DNA of 63,542 bases, counting the filler, from an uncultured Methanosarcinales archaeon (lineage in GTDB: Archaea > Nanobdellota > Nanobdellia > Woesearchaeales > GW2011-AR9), in assembly GCA_964434885.1 (NCBI GenBank). It is 3 parts of 3 records of this genome, joined end to end, with 100 filler letters (N's around TTAATTAATTAA, not from the genome) between each part and the next. Parts side by side here need not be neighbours in the genome. Positions count along the whole stretch, not along the records: positions 23,928 to 44,473 come from CAYSWQ010000011.1; 2 more parts are not named here. One strand, given 5' to 3'. Shown here one piece after another: positions 3,736-37,093 of this stretch (position 1 is the stretch's first letter; each line of letters begins with the position of its first letter). Below the pieces are notes generated by a model. That model was not told where the DNA came from. It was given only the letters and a program-made list of their open reading frames with translations, and ran no database searches. A program made the position numbers and the translations under genes.

Positions 3736-5160
3736 TCACCAATGAACCATCCGATGAGATTTCTTAAAAATTTTATAAATATTATAACAATGAAAAGTAA
3801 CAAAACCATTAGCTGCCCCAATATTATCTTTAGACATAGTTAATTTATCTTTAATTCCTTTCGGTTTAGCAACATTCTTTTTTTTACCAACAGTAATAAA
3901 ATCACCCAGCATTCTTTCTGTAAAACTTTTTTTCTGAGGGGTTTCCTTTTTCTTTTTATTTTTAACCTCTTCTCCTGCTTCTTCCAAATAACTAAATAAT
4001 TCATCACCTAGTGCTTCCATCGCTGCCTTAACAGAATCAGAAATAGTTTTTAATAATTCCAAACTTTCTCTTTGTTTCATTTCCCGATATTTTTTTATTT
4101 GGTGTTTATTCCAAAGATATCTTCGAATATTCAATTCTAATTGACCTACATGAACTGGTCCTCTTTGATAACCTTCTTGAACAAATTTCATACTTGGACT
4201 AGTTCGATAATTAAAAGTAACTATTAAAACTCCATGGTGCTTACCATACTTACGAGAAGCCAATAACTCAATGTCAACCATACTTCCCTCAAAAGCAGCT
4301 ATTAAATCAGGAGCAGAAGCATGCTTATCCTTGGGTGACATTCTTTGAATATTTTTTAAATATGGTTTAGACCATTCCATATACATTTTAATAATATCAA
4401 AATGTTGTCTTAAATACTGCAAAGTGAATCTTCTCCGATTAATCATTTCTGAATTTGTTCTTTTTTTCCATTCCATAAATTGTCGAGTATGTCTTTTCAA
4501 AACTTCTTTCACTTTTAAATTAAAATCTAAAGCATTAACATAATTTTCCATTTCAGCTGCATCTTTAAATGGAGGTGCATCAAAAAACAAATCTGGTAAG
4601 GTAGTAAATTCTAATTCTCTAGCCATCCCATAAACTGAAGCTGCATTTTTAGCTCCCCCCTGAACAAGATCAATAAACATTCCTTTCAAAGTAATTTCTG
4701 CCCCTTTCATTCTTTGATTCATAGGTTTATCTCCTTGCATTGCTGATTCACGATAATAAGTTAATCTTTCATCCAATATTCGTAACTCTCTAACTAATTG
4801 AAAAAGCTCTTTCACCATTTTGCCAATGGTTGCTAAAAATTGAGAAACCTTATCTTGCTGACCCCCTAATCTTTGTTGAGTAATTCCAAAAAAAGCACTA
4901 GTTTCAGCAGAAGCATAAGTGTCTTCAGTCTTTTCAATATGGGGAAATCCAGCATCATAACGTAAGTATTTCAAAATCCAGAAGTAAGGTTCTTCGATAT
5001 TCAAATCTGGAACTTCATACATAACTCGGAATCTTTTTTTCGGCTTAGGAAAACCAGTAGGCACAAAATATTCTCTAAAATCTTCTGCTACTTCTTCCTT
5101 TTCAAAACCATGTTCTTTCAATAATTCCGAACTAACCATCTGACACCTTCTTTTAATCAA
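3736..5160 (-). CDS. Conserved-looking hypothetical protein (true start probably ATG 5139)
   Basis: 474 aa ORF; AGGTG RBS precedes MVSSELL. Confidence 0.8.
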   Translation of the reverse strand: MIKRRCQMVSSELLKEHGFEKEEVAEDFREYFVPTGFPKPKKRFRVMYEVPDLNIEEPYFWILKYLRYDAGFPHIEKTEDTYASAETSAFFGITQQRLGGQQDKVSQFLATIGKMVKELFQLVRELRILDERLTYYRESAMQGDKPMNQRMKGAEITLKGMFIDLVQGGAKNAASVYGMARELEFTTLPDLFFDAPPFKDAAEMENYVNALDFNLKVKEVLKRHTRQFMEWKKRTNSEMINRRRFTLQYLRQHFDIIKMYMEWSKPYLKNIQRMSPKDKHASAPDLIAAFEGSMVDIELLASRKYGKHHGVLIVTFNYRTSPSMKFVQEGYQRGPVHVGQLELNIRRYLWNKHQIKKYREMKQRESLELLKTISDSVKAAMEALGDELFSYLEEAGEEVKNKKKKETPQKKSFTERMLGDFITVGKKKNVAKPKGIKDKLTMSKDNIGAANGFVTFHCYNIYKIFKKSHRMVHW

Positions 5161-23827: not shown

Positions 23828-23927
23828 NNNNNNNNNNNNNNNNNNNNNNNNNNNNNNNNNNNNNNNNNNNNTTAATTAATTAANNNNNNNNNNNNNNNNN
23901 NNNNNNNNNNNNNNNNNNNNNNNNNNN
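23828..23927. other. Artificial contig linker
   Basis: N-run, TTAATTAATTAA (stops in all frames), N-run. Confidence 0.95.
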
Positions 23928-27061: not shown

Positions 27062-28534
27062 ATGAATCGACATGAAAGTTTGGCTGATGCCAAAAGAACA
27101 ATCTTATTATTACAAGAAGAATTGGAAAGACTAACTCAACCCCCTTACTTATCAGGAACAGTTTTAGAAATTGGTAAAAAAACTACCAGAGTAGCTATCG
27201 ATGGTCAAGGTCTCTGCGAAGTTCTTTCCAATCCTGAACTCAATGGGGCCGGAGAACCGGGTGGTCGTGTCACCTTGAACCCTCAAACTATGGCCATCAT
27301 CGGCGCTTCTGATTTCACTGTCAAAGGTGGCTCAGTCGCTACCATCGAAGAAGTGGACACCGATCGAATTAAAGTTCAAAACAAAGGGGAATCTTATTTT
27401 ATCCTTAATGCTCTAGAAGATGTCAAAGTAGGGGATGAAGTATTACTAGATCCTTCTGGCAGTATTGCCATTGAAAAATTTGATCGCAAGCAAACTAAAT
27501 ACAACTTACAACAAATCCCCACCATGCCTTGGGATAAGATTGGTGGCTTAGATGATATCATTACTCAAATCCGTGATGAAGTCGAAGCTCCTTTTTTGAA
27601 TCAAGAAATCTTCGCCCGCTATGGTCGTAAACCAGCTAAGGGCATCTTACTCTATGGTCCACCTGGCTGCGGAAAAACCATGATTGGAAAAGGGATTGCT
27701 TACAACCTTTCAAAATTAGTAGACGATTGTGGAGCTGGCCATTTCATTGAAATCAAAGGCCCAGAAATCCTAGAAAAATGGGTTGGTAATTCCGAAGCCA
27801 ATGTCCGTCGGATTTACGAAGCTGCTCGGGATGCTACTCAAGATACAGAAAAACCAGTGGTTATCTTCATTGACGAAGCTGAATCCATTTTGAAAACCAG
27901 AGGAACTGGAGTTTCCTCAGATGTCTATGATTCCATCGTCCCTCAGTTTCTAGCCGAAATGGATGGATTAAATGGTCAAGACAACGTCATTACCGTCTTA
28001 GCTACTAACCGGGAAGACATCATTGATCCTGCTATCTTAAGAGATGGCCGAGTAGACCGAAGAATTAAAGTTCCTCGTCCCAACGAAACTGGAGCTACGG
28101 AAATTTTCAATATCTACTTACAGGACAAACCATTACAAGATGATGTTCCGGCTCGTGAACTAGCTGAGCAAATGGCAGCTGTCATCTACGACCCAGAGAA
28201 TGTTGTCTACAATGTTATCGATCCTAAAGCAGAAGTTGTTGGCAGTTTTACTTATGCCAACTTAACCAGTGGAGCCATGCTGAAAGGAATTGTTGATCGC
28301 GCCTGTTCTTACGCCATTAAAAGAGAAATGGCCCATGGCCGGCCAGGATTAGCTAAAGATGACCTAGAATCAGCTTTCACTGATGAAATTAGAGACTCTT
28401 CTGGATTCGCTCAATCCCTAGTCAAGGAAGATTGGGATGATGTTTTTGGTGATCGCGGTCGCCAATATCAACAAGCTCAACGCCAAGGCTACTTGGTTTT
28501 AGAGAAGGTGTTAGATGATGGAGGAATAAAATGA
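27062..28534 (+). CDS. ARC/Mpa-type proteasome-associated AAA+ ATPase
   Basis: N-terminal coiled coil LQEELERLTQPP, two OB-like segments, GPPGCGKT, IKGPEIL, FIDEAE, RGTGVSSDV, NREDIIDPAILR, SGAMLKGIVDRA. Confidence 0.88.
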   Translation: MNRHESLADAKRTILLLQEELERLTQPPYLSGTVLEIGKKTTRVAIDGQGLCEVLSNPELNGAGEPGGRVTLNPQTMAIIGASDFTVKGGSVATIEEVDTDRIKVQNKGESYFILNALEDVKVGDEVLLDPSGSIAIEKFDRKQTKYNLQQIPTMPWDKIGGLDDIITQIRDEVEAPFLNQEIFARYGRKPAKGILLYGPPGCGKTMIGKGIAYNLSKLVDDCGAGHFIEIKGPEILEKWVGNSEANVRRIYEAARDATQDTEKPVVIFIDEAESILKTRGTGVSSDVYDSIVPQFLAEMDGLNGQDNVITVLATNREDIIDPAILRDGRVDRRIKVPRPNETGATEIFNIYLQDKPLQDDVPARELAEQMAAVIYDPENVVYNVIDPKAEVVGSFTYANLTSGAMLKGIVDRACSYAIKREMAHGRPGLAKDDLESAFTDEIRDSSGFAQSLVKEDWDDVFGDRGRQYQQAQRQGYLVLEKVLDDGGIK

Positions 28535-28947
28535 AACAAGATATGAAAGACAAACAAACTGAACAAAAACCCTACCAAACTGATAGTCCAGCTCTAGAAC
28601 AGCAATTACCAATTGTAATTTCCGCTCGTACTGGATTAGCCAGTCAAGACGATGCCATTATGCGAAGAATTCCCACCGAATACGGTGGAAAATCTGTCCG
28701 TGAAGCCTTAGAATATGTTACTGGTGGAGCTGCTACTGATGAAGAACTTCCTTTTGTAGATAGTATCAAAAGAGAATTATCTGCTCGCGGTAGCGTAGTT
28801 GTCGCTAATGGAAAAACTTCTGATCTTACTGATCGAGTTGAGAAGTACCTAGTCGAAAAATCCCATGAACTACCAAACGGAGAAGTTTCCAAATATCATG
28901 CTTTGGAAATCGAAGTCTCTGCTGTTCAACAAGGAGGATATTTTTGA
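28531..28947 (+). CDS. Putative ubiquitin-like (beta-grasp) protein with C-terminal GG-YF
   Basis: SVREALEYV helix, VVVANGK (MoaD/SAMP-like VxVNG), terminal strand LEIEVSAVQQGG plus YF; operon context. Confidence 0.7.
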   Translation: MKQDMKDKQTEQKPYQTDSPALEQQLPIVISARTGLASQDDAIMRRIPTEYGGKSVREALEYVTGGAATDEELPFVDSIKRELSARGSVVVANGKTSDLTDRVEKYLVEKSHELPNGEVSKYHALEIEVSAVQQGGYF

Positions 28948-28962: not shown

Positions 28963-30813
28963 ATGGAAATCAAACGCGGTTTAGAATTAATCTTGGAAAA
29001 GAACCTCGGCTTAGAACATGGTCGAGGTAGAGATGAATTCTATTATGAAGGGGAATTAGATCATTATAAATTAGGTCAACGCGTGGAAGTTATTGAACAA
29101 GTAGCTGAAGATAAATTGGTTGTCCGCGCCGAAAAAAATTGTGGCAGTTGTACTTGTCACAAAGCAATCGCCGTCCATCCCGAAGAAGTTGGTTTAGGAC
29201 AACCTAAAAAAATTGCTCTCCAACAAATGCCTGGTTTAGCTGAAGTTGATCAACACCCTTTGTTTGAATTTGCGGAAAGCAACCCCCTCTTCATTGTTGG
29301 TGGTGAAGTATATACTCCTACCAAAGGCAAAGCTACTGGATCTTTTTATCGCCCCAACCAATGGAGACAACCTTTAGTAGTCTTAGGTACTCTCACCTCT
29401 CTAGATGAATTAGCTAGTCACCGTCAGCATTTCCAAATTCAAGAAGTACAAACCGCTTATGCTTTAGAACAAATTAAAAAAATTACTAACTCTGATGCTC
29501 ATGGAGGTAATTTAGATTTACCGCAACGAATCTACAAATTAGTTTTCCCCCATTTACGTTCAGAAAATTACGAGAACAAATTGGCCTTACTAATTCATGG
29601 CAAAGCCCCATCACCTCAAAAAGCCAAGGGTGAAGTCAAAAGCAATGGTGAAGTGCAGAGAATTGCCCAAACATTGTACAACCAAGTACAAGAAATGATT
29701 ACCCAGATTGAGCAAGAAGGTAATGTTCCTAAACAAGAACGGACTAAAATAAAATCAAAATTAGATGGATTACTAGATTACCAAGAACCTGAAATTGTAG
29801 CTGATTCTCCCTTGACCAGAGCTCTTAAGGGAACTTCTGTTGCTTTAATTAGAGGAGAGATTTATGATCTCCACCCTACCGACGAAACCACTCAATTACA
29901 AATCAACAATCAAAATTACAAATTAGTTCTTCGTAAAACCGAACCAAAACAAAAAGCAGAATTTGAAGTCGGCGATCAAATCGTAATGAATAAACGAGCT
30001 ACTAAAAAATACAGATATACTCATGAAGGTAGCAGAGGGAAGATTATTGCAGAAACGGGAAATGGAAAATACCGGGTTAGATTCACCCTACAAACAGGGG
30101 ATCCACAAGGTGGAACTACTACTTGGAAAGTCCATGAAGATTACATGACCAACGTTACTCCAAATGAACCATTCATTGAAACTATTGAAACTCTTGAAAA
30201 CCAAGTCTTATTAGAACAAAGCAGAGACTTAAGAATCAGCGCTCTCCGAGAACACATCACTCCTCAAGATATTGCTTCTCTAATCAAAGATGAACACACT
30301 GCTTTGTTAACATTAAAAGACAAAAAAGAATACGCTGAAGATAACTTTGGTTTCCTCACTCGTAGTAGAGATACTTATGTCTATTTAGAAGTTCCTGCTT
30401 TCGCGATTAAAAGTCAATTTGATGGTAATTATTATCTCTTTGACAAAGCTAGAATTGGCTTCCAAGTTTATTCTGATGGTTCCAGTATCAACTATTCTGA
30501 GAGACTAGTAATGATTGACAACAACAATCATCCTTTTAATCATAATGAACGTGGAAGTTGGGTAAAAATATGTATAGGTAGACAAAGTTTTCCCACTTCC
30601 GGCAAAGATCGAGGGGAAGTAATTGCCAAAAGATTACGTCGGGGACAAGAAATGCTGATGTATGGTTATACCAGCCGAGATTATCAGCGTTGTTACGAGT
30701 TAAGAAAAGAATGTTATAGTTGCGGAAGAAATCATTTCTCCCAAAACCTAACCACAGAAGCCAAAGTAAAGAGCCTAGGTGTACCAATAATCAATGGAGG
30801 ACCCAGACGATGA
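28963..30813 (+). CDS. Large protein with SH3-like insert and C-terminal putative E2 (UBC-like) domain
   Basis: HPF(N)...ICIG motif (His523, Cys537) after a beta-meander; FEVGDQIV...GKI...YRVRF SH3-like segment; context between Ubl and JAB. Confidence 0.6.
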   Translation: MEIKRGLELILEKNLGLEHGRGRDEFYYEGELDHYKLGQRVEVIEQVAEDKLVVRAEKNCGSCTCHKAIAVHPEEVGLGQPKKIALQQMPGLAEVDQHPLFEFAESNPLFIVGGEVYTPTKGKATGSFYRPNQWRQPLVVLGTLTSLDELASHRQHFQIQEVQTAYALEQIKKITNSDAHGGNLDLPQRIYKLVFPHLRSENYENKLALLIHGKAPSPQKAKGEVKSNGEVQRIAQTLYNQVQEMITQIEQEGNVPKQERTKIKSKLDGLLDYQEPEIVADSPLTRALKGTSVALIRGEIYDLHPTDETTQLQINNQNYKLVLRKTEPKQKAEFEVGDQIVMNKRATKKYRYTHEGSRGKIIAETGNGKYRVRFTLQTGDPQGGTTTWKVHEDYMTNVTPNEPFIETIETLENQVLLEQSRDLRISALREHITPQDIASLIKDEHTALLTLKDKKEYAEDNFGFLTRSRDTYVYLEVPAFAIKSQFDGNYYLFDKARIGFQVYSDGSSINYSERLVMIDNNNHPFNHNERGSWVKICIGRQSFPTSGKDRGEVIAKRLRRGQEMLMYGYTSRDYQRCYELRKECYSCGRNHFSQNLTTEAKVKSLGVPIINGGPRR

Positions 30814-31856
30814 AAAATTTAAATGATTTATTAGGACAAACTGAACCAGAAGTAAAACCAACTGAAGAACCTACAATATTAAACACTATTCATGTTACTA
30901 GACACGCCTATCAAAAAGCTTATGCCTACGCCCACTTAGCTTGTAAAATTGCTAGAAGAAGTATTGAATGTGGAGGGTATCTAATTGCTCCTAAAGACTC
31001 TGGTGATCGTATCGCCACAGATGCCTACCTAGCCAGAGATCAAAAAGTAGCTGCCGGTCTTTTCACTGTTGAAGCGGAAGATGTTATCAAAGCCGGTAGA
31101 GAAGTTGATCAACTCGGTTACCGAGTTCTAGGTTGGTGGCATAGTCATGGAAAACTAAACACTTTCTTTTCCCAACTAGATGACCGGGGCCAGATGACTG
31201 TGCTTAATGAAATCTGTGCCTTCAATTATATCACTAAACCCTCTACCAAACCAGTCCACAATTTAGAAACCGAAATAGAGGATGGCAAAATTATCCTGTT
31301 CGATAAACAAAACCCCAATACTCGGTACGAGATAACTGGTACTGGCAACATTGACATTGCTAGTTTACAAATTACTGAAGAAAAGAAAATTGGCTTTGCT
31401 TATGGCTTAGTTGTTAATGCTGGACTTGATAAAACCCCTTATGCCGAAATGGCTACCCGAGAGTATTGTTACTCATGCCGTGATTCTGTCAGTCAAAGTG
31501 ATCCCTGCAATATTAGTGTTTTTGGTCCACCAACCGAAAAAATGGACTTAAAACAACTCCGTAAAGATATTCGTGAAAGAGTCAAATGGCAGAAGAAATT
31601 TTTGAGTTATTTCAAGAAAAAAACAAGGATTGGAACCCAACCCTATGTTCCTGGTTCTTTTCCTGAAGATCCTGTAGCTACTTTTCCATCCAACCCTTAT
31701 GTCCCTCCTGCCAGACCCACGAAACCAGTTACACCTACACCTCTAGTCCCGGCACCTCGACCCCCACAACAAACAGACATGGTGTTTCCAACGATGCCAA
31801 AACCCGAAAACAAAAAGCCAAAAAGAACCAGAACTAAAAAGAAACCAAAAAAATGA
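30810..31856 (+). CDS. JAB/MPN+ (JAMM) metalloprotease with Pro/Lys-rich tail
   Basis: ECGGYL and WWHSHG...FFSQLD JAMM motif; ATG 30810 overlaps upstream TGA, GGAGG RBS. Confidence 0.88.
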   Translation: MKNLNDLLGQTEPEVKPTEEPTILNTIHVTRHAYQKAYAYAHLACKIARRSIECGGYLIAPKDSGDRIATDAYLARDQKVAAGLFTVEAEDVIKAGREVDQLGYRVLGWWHSHGKLNTFFSQLDDRGQMTVLNEICAFNYITKPSTKPVHNLETEIEDGKIILFDKQNPNTRYEITGTGNIDIASLQITEEKKIGFAYGLVVNAGLDKTPYAEMATREYCYSCRDSVSQSDPCNISVFGPPTEKMDLKQLRKDIRERVKWQKKFLSYFKKKTRIGTQPYVPGSFPEDPVATFPSNPYVPPARPTKPVTPTPLVPAPRPPQQTDMVFPTMPKPENKKPKRTRTKKKPKK

Positions 31857-33238: not shown

Positions 33239-35068
33239 TTATTTTTTAGCTACTGCTGACCGAGTAGCTCTGTACAATCCATTAATTAATTCTTTATGCA
33301 CTTTCCCTTCATTATCTGTGATATAATAATAAGCTAAAGCACGATCTACTAAGTTCCTTCTAGTATGACTCATAAATTCTCGGTATCCTTTATACATTGT
33401 GCCTCTCTCAGATATCCTTGGGAAATAATTTGGATTTTTGGATCTCACTCTTGCCGAAAATATTTCTTCCATAGAATCGGAAAAATAAAGTGCGTAAACA
33501 TCACTTAAATTTTTATGATTTCCAATACATCTTTTTAGATATTGTAATCCTGAGGAAATATCTTGTCCTGTCCCCATTAAATGTACAGGGGTTCTTAACC
33601 CTGCTGCCTGTGATATTCTATGGGCAAACATTTTTGGTGCAGCTAAAATATCTAATCTATTTTCAGCAAATTTTTTATAACCACTAGAATCTTCTTCTTT
33701 AGTCATTTCAATACTTCTAAGCAAAGAATACATCATTCTCTTGCTCATTCGATGATATTCAGCTATTTGTCCAATTTTATGATTAAGCACAGGATCTAGC
33801 TCTTTATCATGGTTTTTAATTTCTCGAAAAACAGGTCTCAATTGCTCCAAAGTTTTTCTATTAGCATGTTTAATCAGTACATCAATACTGGAATCTTCAA
33901 ATAATGGATTGGCACTCAATGTTTGAAAAATACTGGGTTCTGCTTTTCTTGCTTTCGCTTCTTCTAACCGAGCCAACTTTCCTCCCCAGATTGCCCCAGT
34001 TAAAATTCCTGTAGTTACTGCAAATATACCCATATATTTTACAGCTTGTTTCCAATAAGTAAATCTTCTTGGTTCAGTTGCAGCCAATAAATCCTGCCTA
34101 AATGAATCATGAACAACCCACCCACTATTTCCAGAATATTTTCTCTCATACGAAGACAAACAATTACTAATTAATCTCCTATACTGTCTAGGAACCTTCT
34201 TCAATTTTCGCTTTAACAATCGCTCTTGTTTATCTGATTCTATTCGAGTAATTGGTTTTCCTTCTTGTGTTAATATCATTCCTAAATCTCTTCCTGCAAC
34301 CTGGATCTTTTTATCTGAATCCCCTACACTCAATTTTATTTCAGATAAAGGTTCTCCGGTTAATACATAATATAAAGTCATTCCTAAAGCATAAAATTCA
34401 CTTCCAATTGTGGCATTAGTTTCCTTCCCTTTCATCAAAGCATTCAATATATAAGGGTCAGTATAATTTGTTCCTCCACGAGTTGGCAACAAAGAACAAT
34501 CTATTTCTTCCATTTCTCCTACATTTTGCAAATCAGTAATCTTAACATGGTTATTTTTCTTTCCAATTAATATATTAGAAGGTTTAATATCTCGATGCAA
34601 TAATTTCTCATCCAAATGCAAATGTTTTAAACCTGAAGCTATTTGTAAAAACATTTCCCTAATTTTTTCAGGATCAGTTATTGGTCCACTTAATTCAACT
34701 AATTCTTCCAAAGAAACTGCATCATAATGTTCTTCTACACTAAGTGTTTTTCCTTCTTTTTGAAAAGCATCATGGAATTCTATAATATTGGGATGGGAAA
34801 TACTATTCAAAGCCATTACTTCTCTTTCATTCATATCTCCTTTTGATAAATTAATAATTGTAGTTAAAGAATTCGAATCAATTTCATTCTTAGGAACCTT
34901 AGCAACTCTTCTTTTTTCCAAGCACCCATTTGAATACTGTACTTCATATACCTTACTAGTACATCCTTCCCCAATCTGCCTAATTAAAGTATATCCTTTT
35001 TGTTTTAGAAAACACTCTGCTCTTTGTTCCCAATCTACTTCCTTCTCAGCTTCAATATCTTCACTCAT
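33239..35068 (-). CDS. Hanks-type Ser/Thr protein kinase with TM helix and C-terminal domain
   Basis: IGEGCTSKVY, VAK, HPNII, LHRDIKPSNIL, DLQ at the DFG position, GTNYTDP; TM YMGIFAVTTGILTGAIWG. Confidence 0.88.
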   Translation of the reverse strand: MSEDIEAEKEVDWEQRAECFLKQKGYTLIRQIGEGCTSKVYEVQYSNGCLEKRRVAKVPKNEIDSNSLTTIINLSKGDMNEREVMALNSISHPNIIEFHDAFQKEGKTLSVEEHYDAVSLEELVELSGPITDPEKIREMFLQIASGLKHLHLDEKLLHRDIKPSNILIGKKNNHVKITDLQNVGEMEEIDCSLLPTRGGTNYTDPYILNALMKGKETNATIGSEFYALGMTLYYVLTGEPLSEIKLSVGDSDKKIQVAGRDLGMILTQEGKPITRIESDKQERLLKRKLKKVPRQYRRLISNCLSSYERKYSGNSGWVVHDSFRQDLLAATEPRRFTYWKQAVKYMGIFAVTTGILTGAIWGGKLARLEEAKARKAEPSIFQTLSANPLFEDSSIDVLIKHANRKTLEQLRPVFREIKNHDKELDPVLNHKIGQIAEYHRMSKRMMYSLLRSIEMTKEEDSSGYKKFAENRLDILAAPKMFAHRISQAAGLRTPVHLMGTGQDISSGLQYLKRCIGNHKNLSDVYALYFSDSMEEIFSARVRSKNPNYFPRISERGTMYKGYREFMSHTRRNLVDRALAYYYITDNEGKVHKELINGLYRATRSAVAKK

Positions 35069-35155: not shown

Positions 35156-36751
35156 TCAAAACTTCTCCAAACTCATTTGTCCTTTCCTTCGACCCCTAGG
35201 AATTTCTTTAACTTCCACACCTAATTGCTTCTTAACATCAACTGCAACTCGTTGACCCAATAACTTAACCAAATCACTCAGTTCTGCTTTCTTCAAATCT
35301 CCCAAATCCACCAAACCATTCTTATACAACTTCCGAGCCCGTTTCCGACCAATCCCTTTCAATTTCAATAAAGGTAACAATTCCTCCTTAACTCCTTTCT
35401 TAACCCTAATTCTTAACTTAGTTATCTCTTTCAAAAGTGGTTGAAACTGCAACAATCGAGCTAACTCAGAACTTGCATATAACAACCAATCTCCAATCGC
35501 TAGTTTAACAAATATTTCTCCCGGTCGAATTCCATATTTCTCCATCAAATAATCTTCTCCCATTTCTTCAATCCAATCAGAAAAAAACAATGCGGTCTTA
35601 ATCGAATTAATAAAATCTTCATAATTAGGATCATATAATGTTGGTTCCGCTTGTAACAATTGATCATACTTCTCAACCAATTTTTCCTGCACCCAATCTT
35701 GCTCCCTCATCTTCACCCTTAATGGGGGAACCATCTCTAAAGTATTAGAAAACATCTGCAAAAAAGAAAACGAAGTAACTTCTACTTTCCCACTAGTACA
35801 ATTCCTCAAACACTGAATCAAATAATTAGCTGTAAAAGGGTCCAAATATAATTCAGAAACTCTTTTTCCAATCAAAGTTGGTCTTAAAAAAACATTTTCT
35901 TCACTTTTAACTTTATCACCACCAACCAAATTACTAGCCGTGACAAAACCCAACATTCCTTTCTTTTTCTCGCCACTATTCAAACCAATATTTCCAATAT
36001 CTTGAATCTTAATAAATTCATACTCTTCCAATAATCCCAACATATCATCAATTATTTGTCTAATCTTATTCATATCTTTAAATTGATAAGCCCAAAAAGT
36101 TTTCGAAAAAAAATCAATCAACTTTTTCTTAGTTGGAGTTATTCCAGAAGCAATCAAAGATAATAAATATGTTCTAAACACTGGTTCTACTGCTAATTTA
36201 GAATAAATTTCTTCTGGACTACCACGAACATACTTTTCATAAATTTCATCCCTTTCTCCATCACTCTTAGCAATACAAATTGCTTCACCAAATTTCTCAT
36301 ACTCTGGACGACCAGCCCTACCTGCCATCTGCTGGTATTCCAATACTGGAATCCAATTCATTCCCCATCTTCCAGAATATCTTTTCAATGATTTAATAAT
36401 AACTCGAAAAGCAGGAAGCGACATTCCGGCAGCAAGTGTTGGTGTACAACAAACAATTTTAATATTCCCTGCCCTAAATTCATCTTCAATTAAAGTCTTC
36501 TGGGTAGTCGTTAAACCAGCGTGATGAAAAGCAACACCTTTCTTCACACACTTAGCCAAACGATGACATTGTTTAGTTGGCGCCGAAACCCCTTTAAAAA
36601 CACTCTCACTTTGCTCCAATAAAATTATTTTAGTTTGCTTAGAAATATCTTCTGCTGTCTTCTCCGCCGAAGCTCGACTCGGAACAAAAACTAATGCTTG
36701 TTTCTTACACATTATCGTTTCCAAAGCCAAACTCAGAGTTTCATCTAACAT
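35156..36751 (-). CDS. hel308: Hel308/Ski2-like helicase, C-terminal half (RecA2, WH, ratchet, HhH)
   Basis: QALVFVPSR, GVAFHHAGL, TPTLAAG.SLPA, QMAGRAGRP, SELYLDP, RVKKGVKEELLPL..LKGIGRKRARKLY; no Walker A/B. Confidence 0.88.
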   Translation of the reverse strand: MLDETLSLALETIMCKKQALVFVPSRASAEKTAEDISKQTKIILLEQSESVFKGVSAPTKQCHRLAKCVKKGVAFHHAGLTTTQKTLIEDEFRAGNIKIVCCTPTLAAGMSLPAFRVIIKSLKRYSGRWGMNWIPVLEYQQMAGRAGRPEYEKFGEAICIAKSDGERDEIYEKYVRGSPEEIYSKLAVEPVFRTYLLSLIASGITPTKKKLIDFFSKTFWAYQFKDMNKIRQIIDDMLGLLEEYEFIKIQDIGNIGLNSGEKKKGMLGFVTASNLVGGDKVKSEENVFLRPTLIGKRVSELYLDPFTANYLIQCLRNCTSGKVEVTSFSFLQMFSNTLEMVPPLRVKMREQDWVQEKLVEKYDQLLQAEPTLYDPNYEDFINSIKTALFFSDWIEEMGEDYLMEKYGIRPGEIFVKLAIGDWLLYASSELARLLQFQPLLKEITKLRIRVKKGVKEELLPLLKLKGIGRKRARKLYKNGLVDLGDLKKAELSDLVKLLGQRVAVDVKKQLGVEVKEIPRGRRKGQMSLEKF

Positions 36752-36823: not shown

Positions 36824-37093
36824 TTAAGAAAACTTTTGAACTAATTCAACAGCACCATAAATAACAACTAAATACCCAATTCCTTTTGTGATTTCTATTC
36901 CAATCGAATCAGATAACCAGTAATTTTCAGAAGGTAAATTAAATCTTTTCCTAATTTCATTTGTTTCTTTATGTAATTTGTAAGTATAACCTGGAATTAA
37001 AATACCTTTTATAATTCCACAAATACCTACTTCCTTAGAATGTTTTTTTAATGCTTCACCATAATTATCCATTAAATTGTCTAATTCTTCCAT
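36824..37093 (-). CDS. Small hypothetical membrane protein
   Basis: 89 aa ORF with C-terminal hydrophobic segment. Confidence 0.55.
   Translation of the reverse strand: MEELDNLMDNYGEALKKHSKEVGICGIIKGILIPGYTYKLHKETNEIRKRFNLPSENYWLSDSIGIEITKGIGYLVVIYGAVELVQKFS

Follow-up and report, generated by a model that had tools for sequence, protein, structure and literature searches.

A predicted E2-like protein family within a Bil-like ubiquitin-like conjugation cassette of DPANN-type archaea

We describe a 616-aa multidomain archaeal protein that is most likely the E2 of a self-contained ubiquitin-like tagging cassette, and we regard its Cys537, as judged from sequence conservation and a structural model, as the probable E2-type catalytic residue of a ubiquitin-like protein (Ubl) cascade. 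The presence of a UBC-like E2 core is supported by four independent computational lines, namely residue conservation, fold matches, language-model neighbours and a conserved Ubl-E2-JAB-E1 gene neighbourhood. The protein belongs to no filed E2 family, because no profile matches it, the HPN motif is not kept and its length is threefold that of a usual E2, and it probably constitutes a new family of E2s in an archaeal cassette that resembles Bil.

E2 enzymes are the defining components of ubiquitin-type signalling, and the earlier prokaryotic E2 families (CEHH/BilB, BubB and Cap2) each altered ideas on how and where such cascades evolved. The E2-like family reported here is invisible to current profiles, is spread over DPANN-type archaea, joins an E2 core and candidate target-binding modules in one chain, and lies repeatedly beside unfoldases of two AAA+ families. 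If its chemistry is confirmed, genome annotation would gain a missing E2, archaeal ubiquitin-like conjugation would reach the smallest known archaeal genomes, and a compact five-gene, E3-free system would become available for studying E2 target choice and handover to an unfoldase.

Organization of the operon

The window, i.e., the whole stretch of 63,542 nucleotides that was analysed, derives from a genome of 1.07 Mb that is 92% complete. The operon is located on contig CAYSWQ010000011.1, of which position 5036 corresponds to window position 28963; window positions 1-23827 belong to another contig. The ORF at 28963-30813 on the plus strand runs for 616 codons without interruption, and its reverse strand is packed with stops. 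It is the third of five genes on one strand, which encode, in this order, an AAA ATPase resembling ARC/Mpa, a 138-aa protein whose tail carries a conserved GG, the 616-aa protein, a JAB peptidase with a long, low-complexity C-terminal tail, and a tandem-ThiF E1 (Table 1). A stop/start overlap is apparent at three of the four junctions, the remaining one being a 15-nt gap; ATGA overlaps were read directly at 28531-28534 and 30810-30813, and the overlap between the JAB and E1 genes is inferred from the ORF coordinates. No E3-like gene was found in the cassette, and neither a PafA/Dop ligase nor a Pup-like gene is present. A link between the cassette and the convergent Ser/Thr kinase gene that follows it is possible but unproven. 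Genes near the operon include archaeal markers, namely those for the thermosome, ribosomal protein L10e and a Hel308-type helicase.

Table 1. Coordinates, in the window, of the cassette genes and of the parts of the 616-aa protein
Feature	Position	Strand	Remark
AAA+ ATPase of ARC/Mpa architecture, 490 aa, operon gene 1	27062..28534	+	Pfam AAA 5e-34
Candidate ubiquitin-like modifier precursor, 138 aa, end ...VQQGG-YF	28531..28947	+	
616-aa multidomain E2-like protein	28963..30813	+	
Residues 1-78, N-terminal SH3/KOW/Tudor-like barrel, variable module	28963..29196	+	
Residues 90-325, central region, conserved, mostly helical	29230..29937	+	In 123/152
Residues 330-400, inserted KOW/SH3-like barrel, rare module	29950..30162	+	
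Residues 408-450, helical hairpin before the UBC-like core	30184..30312	+	DSSP helices 408-431 and 434-450
Residues 456-570, UBC-like core: beta-meander, HPF loop, Cys537, crossover helix 550-567	30328..30672	+	
H523-P524-F525, corresponding to the 'HPN' flap motif of E2s, Phe for Asn	30529..30537	+	
Codon of Cys537, proposed thioester residue	30571..30573	+	
Residues 571-616, C-terminal extension with subfamily-specific C/C/C/H cluster, tail ...PIINGG-PRR	30673..30810	+	
JAB/MPN metallopeptidase, 348 aa from the overlapping ATG	30810..31856	+	Pfam Prok-JAB 7.9e-9
E1-like enzyme, 461 aa	31853..33238	+	Pfam ThiF 2.6e-61, two stretches
Ser/Thr protein kinase, 609 aa, convergent	33239..35068	-	Pfam Pkinase 1.7e-31

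Distribution and domain architecture of the family

The 616-aa protein matched no Pfam family at E<=0.01 or at E<=10, and no entry of NCBIfam, PADLOC, PHROGs or the PDB sequences (phmmer). HMMER searches of all 1.84 billion cluster representatives retrieved 184 relatives at E<=1e-3, 50 of them at E<=1e-30. These relatives are equally poor in annotated domains: at E<=1e-3, 93 of 95 family members had no Pfam family and none had an E2 family, the two matching members being one with a sub-threshold Csm6 HEPN and a radical SAM protein that has only the insert in common. At E<=1, no E2 family was found among 101 members either; SH3_15 was the commonest family (8/101), and both UQ_con (PF00179) and PF14460 fell outside the 25 commonest. 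The best PDB match of the family profile, a DNA ligase (E 0.085), was judged to be a chance match. The family profile detected members in 40 of the 401 sampled genomes of the phylum (DPANN-type archaea), representing 37 of 281 genera, and in 2 of 41 genomes within the taxonomic family of the window organism itself.

Segment profiles of four parts of the protein were searched among 152 family proteins, some of which are fragments. The C-terminal domain (residues 405-616) was detected in 144 and the central region (residues 90-325) in 123, compared to 43 for the N-terminal barrel (residues 1-85) and 9 for the insert (residues 330-400). The family core therefore consists of the central region and the C-terminal domain, and the small barrels are accessory. 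Within the central region, P196 is nearly invariant (at least 90% conserved). Fold searches with the full-length model gave SH3/KOW/Tudor matches over residues 1-78 and 330-400 alone; the SH3-like insert named in the original prediction is real, residues 330-400 matching KOW/SH3-like barrels.

Active site and fold of the C-terminal domain

The original prediction derived an E2 active site from short sequence strings, all of which are present: FGFLTR (residues 462-467), TYVYLEVP (471-478), YYLF (490-493) and RIGFQV (497-502) in the beta-meander, followed by NHPFNHNERGSWVKICIG at residues 522-539, in which H523 through C537 correspond to window positions 30529-30573. In the 144-row profile alignment, 140 rows cover position 537 and 139 of these have a cysteine; Cys537 is also invariant in two further alignments of the family. 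G463 (135/138) and L558 (137/139) are kept to a similar extent, followed by P524 (124/134) and H523 (103/135). The expected resemblance to the HPN pattern of UBC domains holds for the His-Pro pair, which sits 14 residues before Cys537, but not for the Asn, which is gone, position 525 being Phe in 98 of 134 rows; an Asn that would match the canonical catalytic one, about 10 residues ahead of the Cys, was not found, the H-to-C spacing being 14.

The potential zinc sites fared differently from Cys537. Both CGSCTCH (residues 60-66) and C577/C584/C587/H591 occur as strings, but their residues are poorly conserved: at the N-terminal site, C60 is kept in 2/8, C63 in 1/6, C65 in 4/6 and H66 in 4/6 sequences, and at the C-terminal C/C/C/H site conservation ranges from 15/133 to 31/110, the cluster being deleted in many members. 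Neither site is shared by the family at large.

An AlphaFold2 model of residues 400-616, built from a 138-sequence alignment, reached a pLDDT of 93.5, and the full-length model, built from 101 sequences, a pLDDT of 90.8 and a pTM of 0.78. The C-terminal model contains, in order, a hairpin (408-450), a meander (456-517), the loop with H523-P524-F525 and Cys537, a helix (550-567) that begins 13 residues after Cys537, and an extension (571-616), for which the full-length model predicts a strand (609-611) preceded by a short helix (599-605). The elements of the UBC fold, i.e., an N-terminal helix, an antiparallel beta-meander and a crossover helix, are all found in the C-terminal model. Hence, neither of the two outcomes named beforehand as speaking against an E2, a C-terminal domain without a UBC-like fold or a Cys537 that varies among homologues, was observed: the predicted fold is UBC-like and the cysteine is retained in all rows but one.

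A Foldseek search with the C-terminal model gave no match at E<=1e-3. Its best two rows were the E2-E1 protein Cap2 (E 0.17-0.22), with UBE2N, UBE2S and UBE2D2 ranking lower, and the best structural matches of the C-terminal core are catalytic E2s, among which Cap2 is second best. The search against BFVD also returned none at E<=1e-3, a weak row (E 0.09) being a 'Type II CBASS E2 protein domain-containing protein'. Model positions 58-198 align structurally with residues 16-142 of Ubc13. Counted from the start of the aligned range, the His, the Cys and the crossover helix of the model lie at +66, +80 and +93, compared to what we take to be +61, +71 and about +85 in Ubc13. We infer from this topology that Cys537 in the model would be equivalent to the catalytic cysteine of E2 enzymes.

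The language-model embedding of residues 445-616 points in the same direction. In the ESM Atlas, 17 of 30 neighbours belong to the PF14460 Prok-E2_D set, the best row of which scores 0.93, and 28 of 30 neighbours among the named clusters carry Prok-E2_D, the rows listed having scores of 0.92-0.94 and 185-201 of 256 shared features. One of these clusters, 'Prokaryotic E2 family D domain-containing protein', has the family in 55% of its members. The PF14460 model itself gave no match over its cut-off to the 616-aa protein, to its own genome or to the 401 genomes of the phylum, and the link to Prok-E2_D is therefore a resemblance in embedding, which serves as a lead and not as membership. Overall, the likeness to E2 enzymes that was originally proposed stands with regard to fold, conservation, embedding and gene neighbourhood, but does not extend to E2 sequence profiles, of which none matched. 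No other E2 was found in the same genome; a UQ_con match there (E 0.062) was an ORF without E2 features. A predicted complex of the E1 with residues 400-616 scored 0.03 against a mark of 0.32, which makes no call either way.

Candidate modifier and E1

The 138-aa protein encoded directly before the 616-aa protein has no Pfam or PDB sequence match. Its family comprises 93 representatives, of which 91 have a GG located 1-15 residues before the C-terminus, as part of the tail pattern [Q/E]-x-G-G, and G135 and G136 are invariant in all seven operon-linked homologues. Such a GG-plus-tail is the sequence signature of a putative modifier precursor needing trimming. The source names of the homologues are Woesearchaeota, Pacearchaeota or Nanoarchaeota.

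The E1 consists of a degenerate N-terminal ThiF-like half and a second half with intact adenylation residues. In an alignment of 19 sequences, G230, G232, G235, D254, D256, N262, R265, Q266, K277, D321 and C382 are invariant, the three glycines being those that bind the nucleotide; invariance of the active-site residues, C382 included, is confined to the second half. A separate helical CYS domain is absent from the E1, and Cys382 is located in the crossover loop. Its nearest solved relatives are MoeB, ThiF, SAE2 and UBA3.

Related loci

We compared 21 related loci, 20 fetched from the 40 genome matches plus one in a Candidatus Woesearchaeota MAG (L002). A gene for the C-terminal domain is present in all 21, with 22 such genes altogether, and an E1 gene lies in the same cluster at 19. 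The two loci without a clustered E1 both come from one genome, L034 being a tandem pair and L035 the other copy, which lies next to a JAB gene where its contig ends. JAB proteins could be detected in 16/21 loci. In all 20 loci with the upstream side in view, the E2-like gene is immediately preceded by an ORF of 123-225 aa on the same strand, and 12 of these 20 ORFs have a GG within their last 22 residues. Thirteen of 140 neighbouring proteins match PADLOC at E<=1e-8, all of them generic (kinase, NUDIX, helicase, cysteine desulfurase, methyltransferase, CARF/HTH), and the remaining neighbours of the cassettes are mostly housekeeping genes.

AAA+ unfoldases

The first gene of the operon encodes an AAA+ ATPase with a weak match to the proteasomal-ATPase OB domain in Pfam. 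It aligns over its full length with residues 43-468 of Mpa (5kwa_A; E 1.6e-76), and its residues 5-473 score 393.9 bits against the NCBIfam model TIGR03689 pup_AAA, under the cut-off of 504.75. Its C-terminus, ...DDGGIK, is presumably not a proteasome-docking tail of the HbYX/GQYL type. The genome itself contains two genes for proteasome-family subunits. An AAA+ unfoldase is found in or beside the cassette at 7 of 22 places, of the ARC/Mpa type in the window, L033 and L039, and of the ClpX/HslU type (AAA_2) in L035, L036, L037 and L048. That unfoldases from two unrelated families have been recruited suggests a functional coupling with the cassette.

Proposed mechanism and alternative explanations

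Based on these observations, we propose a theoretical scheme in which the JAB peptidase would trim the 138-aa modifier behind its conserved Gly-Gly, and the tandem-ThiF E1 would adenylate the modifier glycine and then take the modifier onto Cys382. From there, the modifier would move to Cys537 as a thioester and subsequently onto lysines of target proteins. As the cassette has no E3-like gene, the central region and the variable barrels are the likeliest docking sites for partners or targets, and the 616-aa protein may be an E2/E3-type hybrid. The original prediction had the extra modules select the substrates in place of a separate E3, and we retain this as a conjecture with which both the missing E3-like gene and the variable SH3-like modules are compatible. 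The ARC/Mpa-type unfoldase in the operon and the ClpX-type unfoldases of its relatives suggest that an unfoldase receives the tagged proteins, and the outcome could be degradation, disassembly or defence.

Other functions can be envisaged for a cassette of this composition. Conjugation can proceed without any E2, as in the archaeal SAMP/UbaA system, and the C-terminal domain could accordingly be a non-catalytic UBC/RWD/UEV-like adaptor that recruits targets or the unfoldase for an E1 that conjugates directly. We consider this unlikely, as a cysteine kept at the E2 active-site position in 139 of 140 sequences is hard to explain in an adaptor, and the structures that match its fold best belong to catalytic E2s. 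Also very unlikely is a sulfur relay, in which the modifier would carry a thiocarboxylate and Cys537 would serve as a persulfide or acyl carrier for cofactor, tRNA or natural-product chemistry. MoeB and ThiF are indeed the solved structures nearest to the E1, a radical SAM enzyme shares the SH3-like insert, and genes for class-V aminotransferases of the cysteine-desulfurase type lie a few genes away in 3 of the 21 loci (L044, L046 and L049). However, those three loci appear interrelated, a desulfurase is missing from the window and from the other 18, and a JAB peptidase, a precursor with GG plus tail and an unfoldase suit protein conjugation better.

The conserved H523 and C537 could also be read as the catalytic pair of a cysteine peptidase or transamidase, acting as a second deconjugating enzyme or as a ligase with other chemistry, and the chemistry is formally open insofar as sequence searches yield no family. 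We hold this to be highly improbable, since no peptidase fold occurs among the matches of the core, the operon already has a JAB peptidase, and a histidine kept in 103 of 135 sequences is low for a catalytic dyad. An E2 acting through Cys537 remains our preferred explanation.

Comparison with known systems

The cassette most closely recalls the bacterial BilABCD operons, of which types I and II are described, type II being the former 6C/CEHH (10.1101/2023.09.26.559546). Both systems have the order Ubl-E2-JAB-E1 in one operon, an E1 with an inactive and an active adenylation half, as in BilD, and a tail behind the reactive Gly of the Ubl precursor, which in the Bil system is removed by the JAB enzyme; both also lack an E3, and the Bil E2 has been proposed as the target selector (10.1101/2023.09.26.559546). 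The Bil E2 'CEHH' (BilB) was, according to section 5 of the same text, at first unrecognised by sequence, too (10.1101/2023.09.26.559546). On the other hand, the cassette described here is archaeal (DPANN), and its E2-like protein is 616 aa long, compared to about 200 aa for BilB (10.1101/2023.09.26.559546), and contains the conserved central region as well as SH3/KOW-like barrels. Unlike BilD as depicted there, the E1 lacks a large CYS domain, its conserved Cys being located in the crossover loop (10.1101/2023.09.26.559546). An AAA+ unfoldase also lies inside the operon described here, and its surroundings do not readily read as a defence island. BilB was absent among the fold-search rows listed, which does not imply its exclusion. 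We found no description of the cassette in open-access papers and bioRxiv; the supplementary tables on Bil and Bub might list archaeal operons.

Two other prokaryotic E2s differ more clearly. BubB, the E2 of the Bub/6E system (PDB 9eav), uses an invariant serine and an oxyester, whereas the E2-like protein here has a cysteine; BubB is also a Ubl-E2 fusion there, compared to a separate Ubl gene and an E1 that retains its cysteine in our cassette (PMC11601596). The E2 domain of Cap2 from type II CBASS (PDB 7to3/7tqd) is a prokaryotic minimal E2, as the C-terminal domain is predicted to be, and was the second-best structural match of that domain; unlike the 616-aa protein, Cap2 is an E2-E1 fusion and conjugates a cGAS-like enzyme instead of a Ubl, and no CD-NTase is encoded here.

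Among eukaryotic E2/E3 hybrids, UBE2O is likewise a large chain with a UBC domain and extra modules, and it binds substrates through SH3-like domains. Foldseek returned UBE2O (7un6_A) as a weak match (E 0.17). Its domain order is different and no homology is detectable beyond generic folds, so the comparison is one of analogy only.

With the Pup-proteasome system, the cassette shares an operon ATPase that aligns end to end with Mpa/ARC, but it differs in having neither a PafA/Dop nor a Pup-like gene, and its ATPase stays under the pup_AAA cut-off. Tag-and-unfold pathways comprise the eukaryote-like ubiquitin system of Caldiarchaeum and Asgard archaea, and bacterial pupylation. We tentatively suggest, as a possibility we consider doubtful, that giant E2/E3 hybrids of DPANN archaea, together with a diglycine modifier, a two-domain E1 and a JAB peptidase, might channel tagged proteins into AAA+ unfoldases of their own, of the Mpa/ARC type in some lineages and of the ClpX type in others, via a third, independently assembled pathway of this kind, in which swappable SH3/KOW-like modules would set the targets.

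Two further observations concern the related loci and genomes. At L041 and L045, kinase genes come after the cassette, as in the window, and the patchy spread of the family, found in 40/401 genomes, recalls that of accessory conflict systems.

Gene neighbourhood of the Ubl cassette

The window is a concatenation in which positions 1-23827 derive from contig C9 and the operon from contig C11, with the join at 23828-23927; genes on either side of this join are therefore not genomic neighbours. An AAA+ unfoldase lies within or adjoins the Ubl cassette in seven of the 22 places (the window and six of the 21 related loci: L033, L035-L037, L039 and L048). These cassette unfoldases belong to two different families, ARC/Mpa-like (n = 3) and ClpX/HslU-like AAA_2 (n = 4). 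The window ATPase aligns to Mpa over its full length, although its pup_AAA score falls below the cut-off. PafA/Dop genes are absent.

A Ser/Thr protein kinase also adjoins the cassette, convergently in the window and on the same strand, 3' of E1, in two relatives. This proximity could hint at phospho-regulation, or else could be coincidence. Minus-strand neighbours in the window further include a Hel308-type helicase ORF, in which Helicase_C and the archaeal domain 4 are present and the N-terminal DEAD/ATP-binding domain was not found; this gene is possibly split or interrupted by a frameshift.

Directly after E1, several relatives encode large ORFs of 840-1069 aa, some of which share the N-terminal SH3/KOW-like module of the 616-aa E2-like protein. 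In some relatives, the position immediately 3' of E1 is occupied by proteins of ~250-290 aa from two small families, placed in L036 and L037 between E1 and a ClpX-like ATPase. No counterpart of these proteins occurs in the window. Cysteine-desulfurase-type class-V aminotransferase genes were observed a few genes away from the cassette in 3 of the 21 loci, within a subgroup also carrying the giant ORFs.

Coordinates of features in and near the cassette, in the window and in related loci (L handles)
Feature	Coordinates	Strand	Remark
AAA+ ATPase, window	27062-28534		
Ser/Thr protein kinase, window	33239-35068	-	
Ser/Thr protein kinases, relatives	L041:13073-14458; L045:13769-15424		
Hel308-type helicase ORF, window	35156-36751	-	531 aa
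89-aa ORF, window	36824-37093	-	just upstream of helicase ORF
Large post-E1 ORFs	L046:1395-4292; L049:1492-4701; L044:2120-4642; L042:1788-4628		no Pfam match
~250-290-aa post-E1 proteins	L036:13156-13917, L037:4039-4791, L038:3065-3832; L041:12189-13076, L045:12941-13762		no Pfam match
Class-V aminotransferase genes	L044:11936-13162; L046:12631-14166; L049:11893-13401		
Tandem E2-like paralogues	L034:2780-6325; L048:7257-9669		

Paralogues and C-terminal tail of the E2-like protein

Tandem paralogues of the E2-like gene occur at two loci, and one sampled genome (G337) carries three copies across two contigs. This multiplication suggests diversification of the putative target-selecting component. 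The C-terminus of the E2-like protein reads ...PIINGG-PRR (residues 611-616, window 30793-30810), which is reminiscent of the candidate modifier's own ...QQGG-tail. The first glycine (G612) is conserved in 31 of the 56 rows that have a residue at its position and the second (G613) in 29 of 39, in both cases mostly in the closer subfamily.
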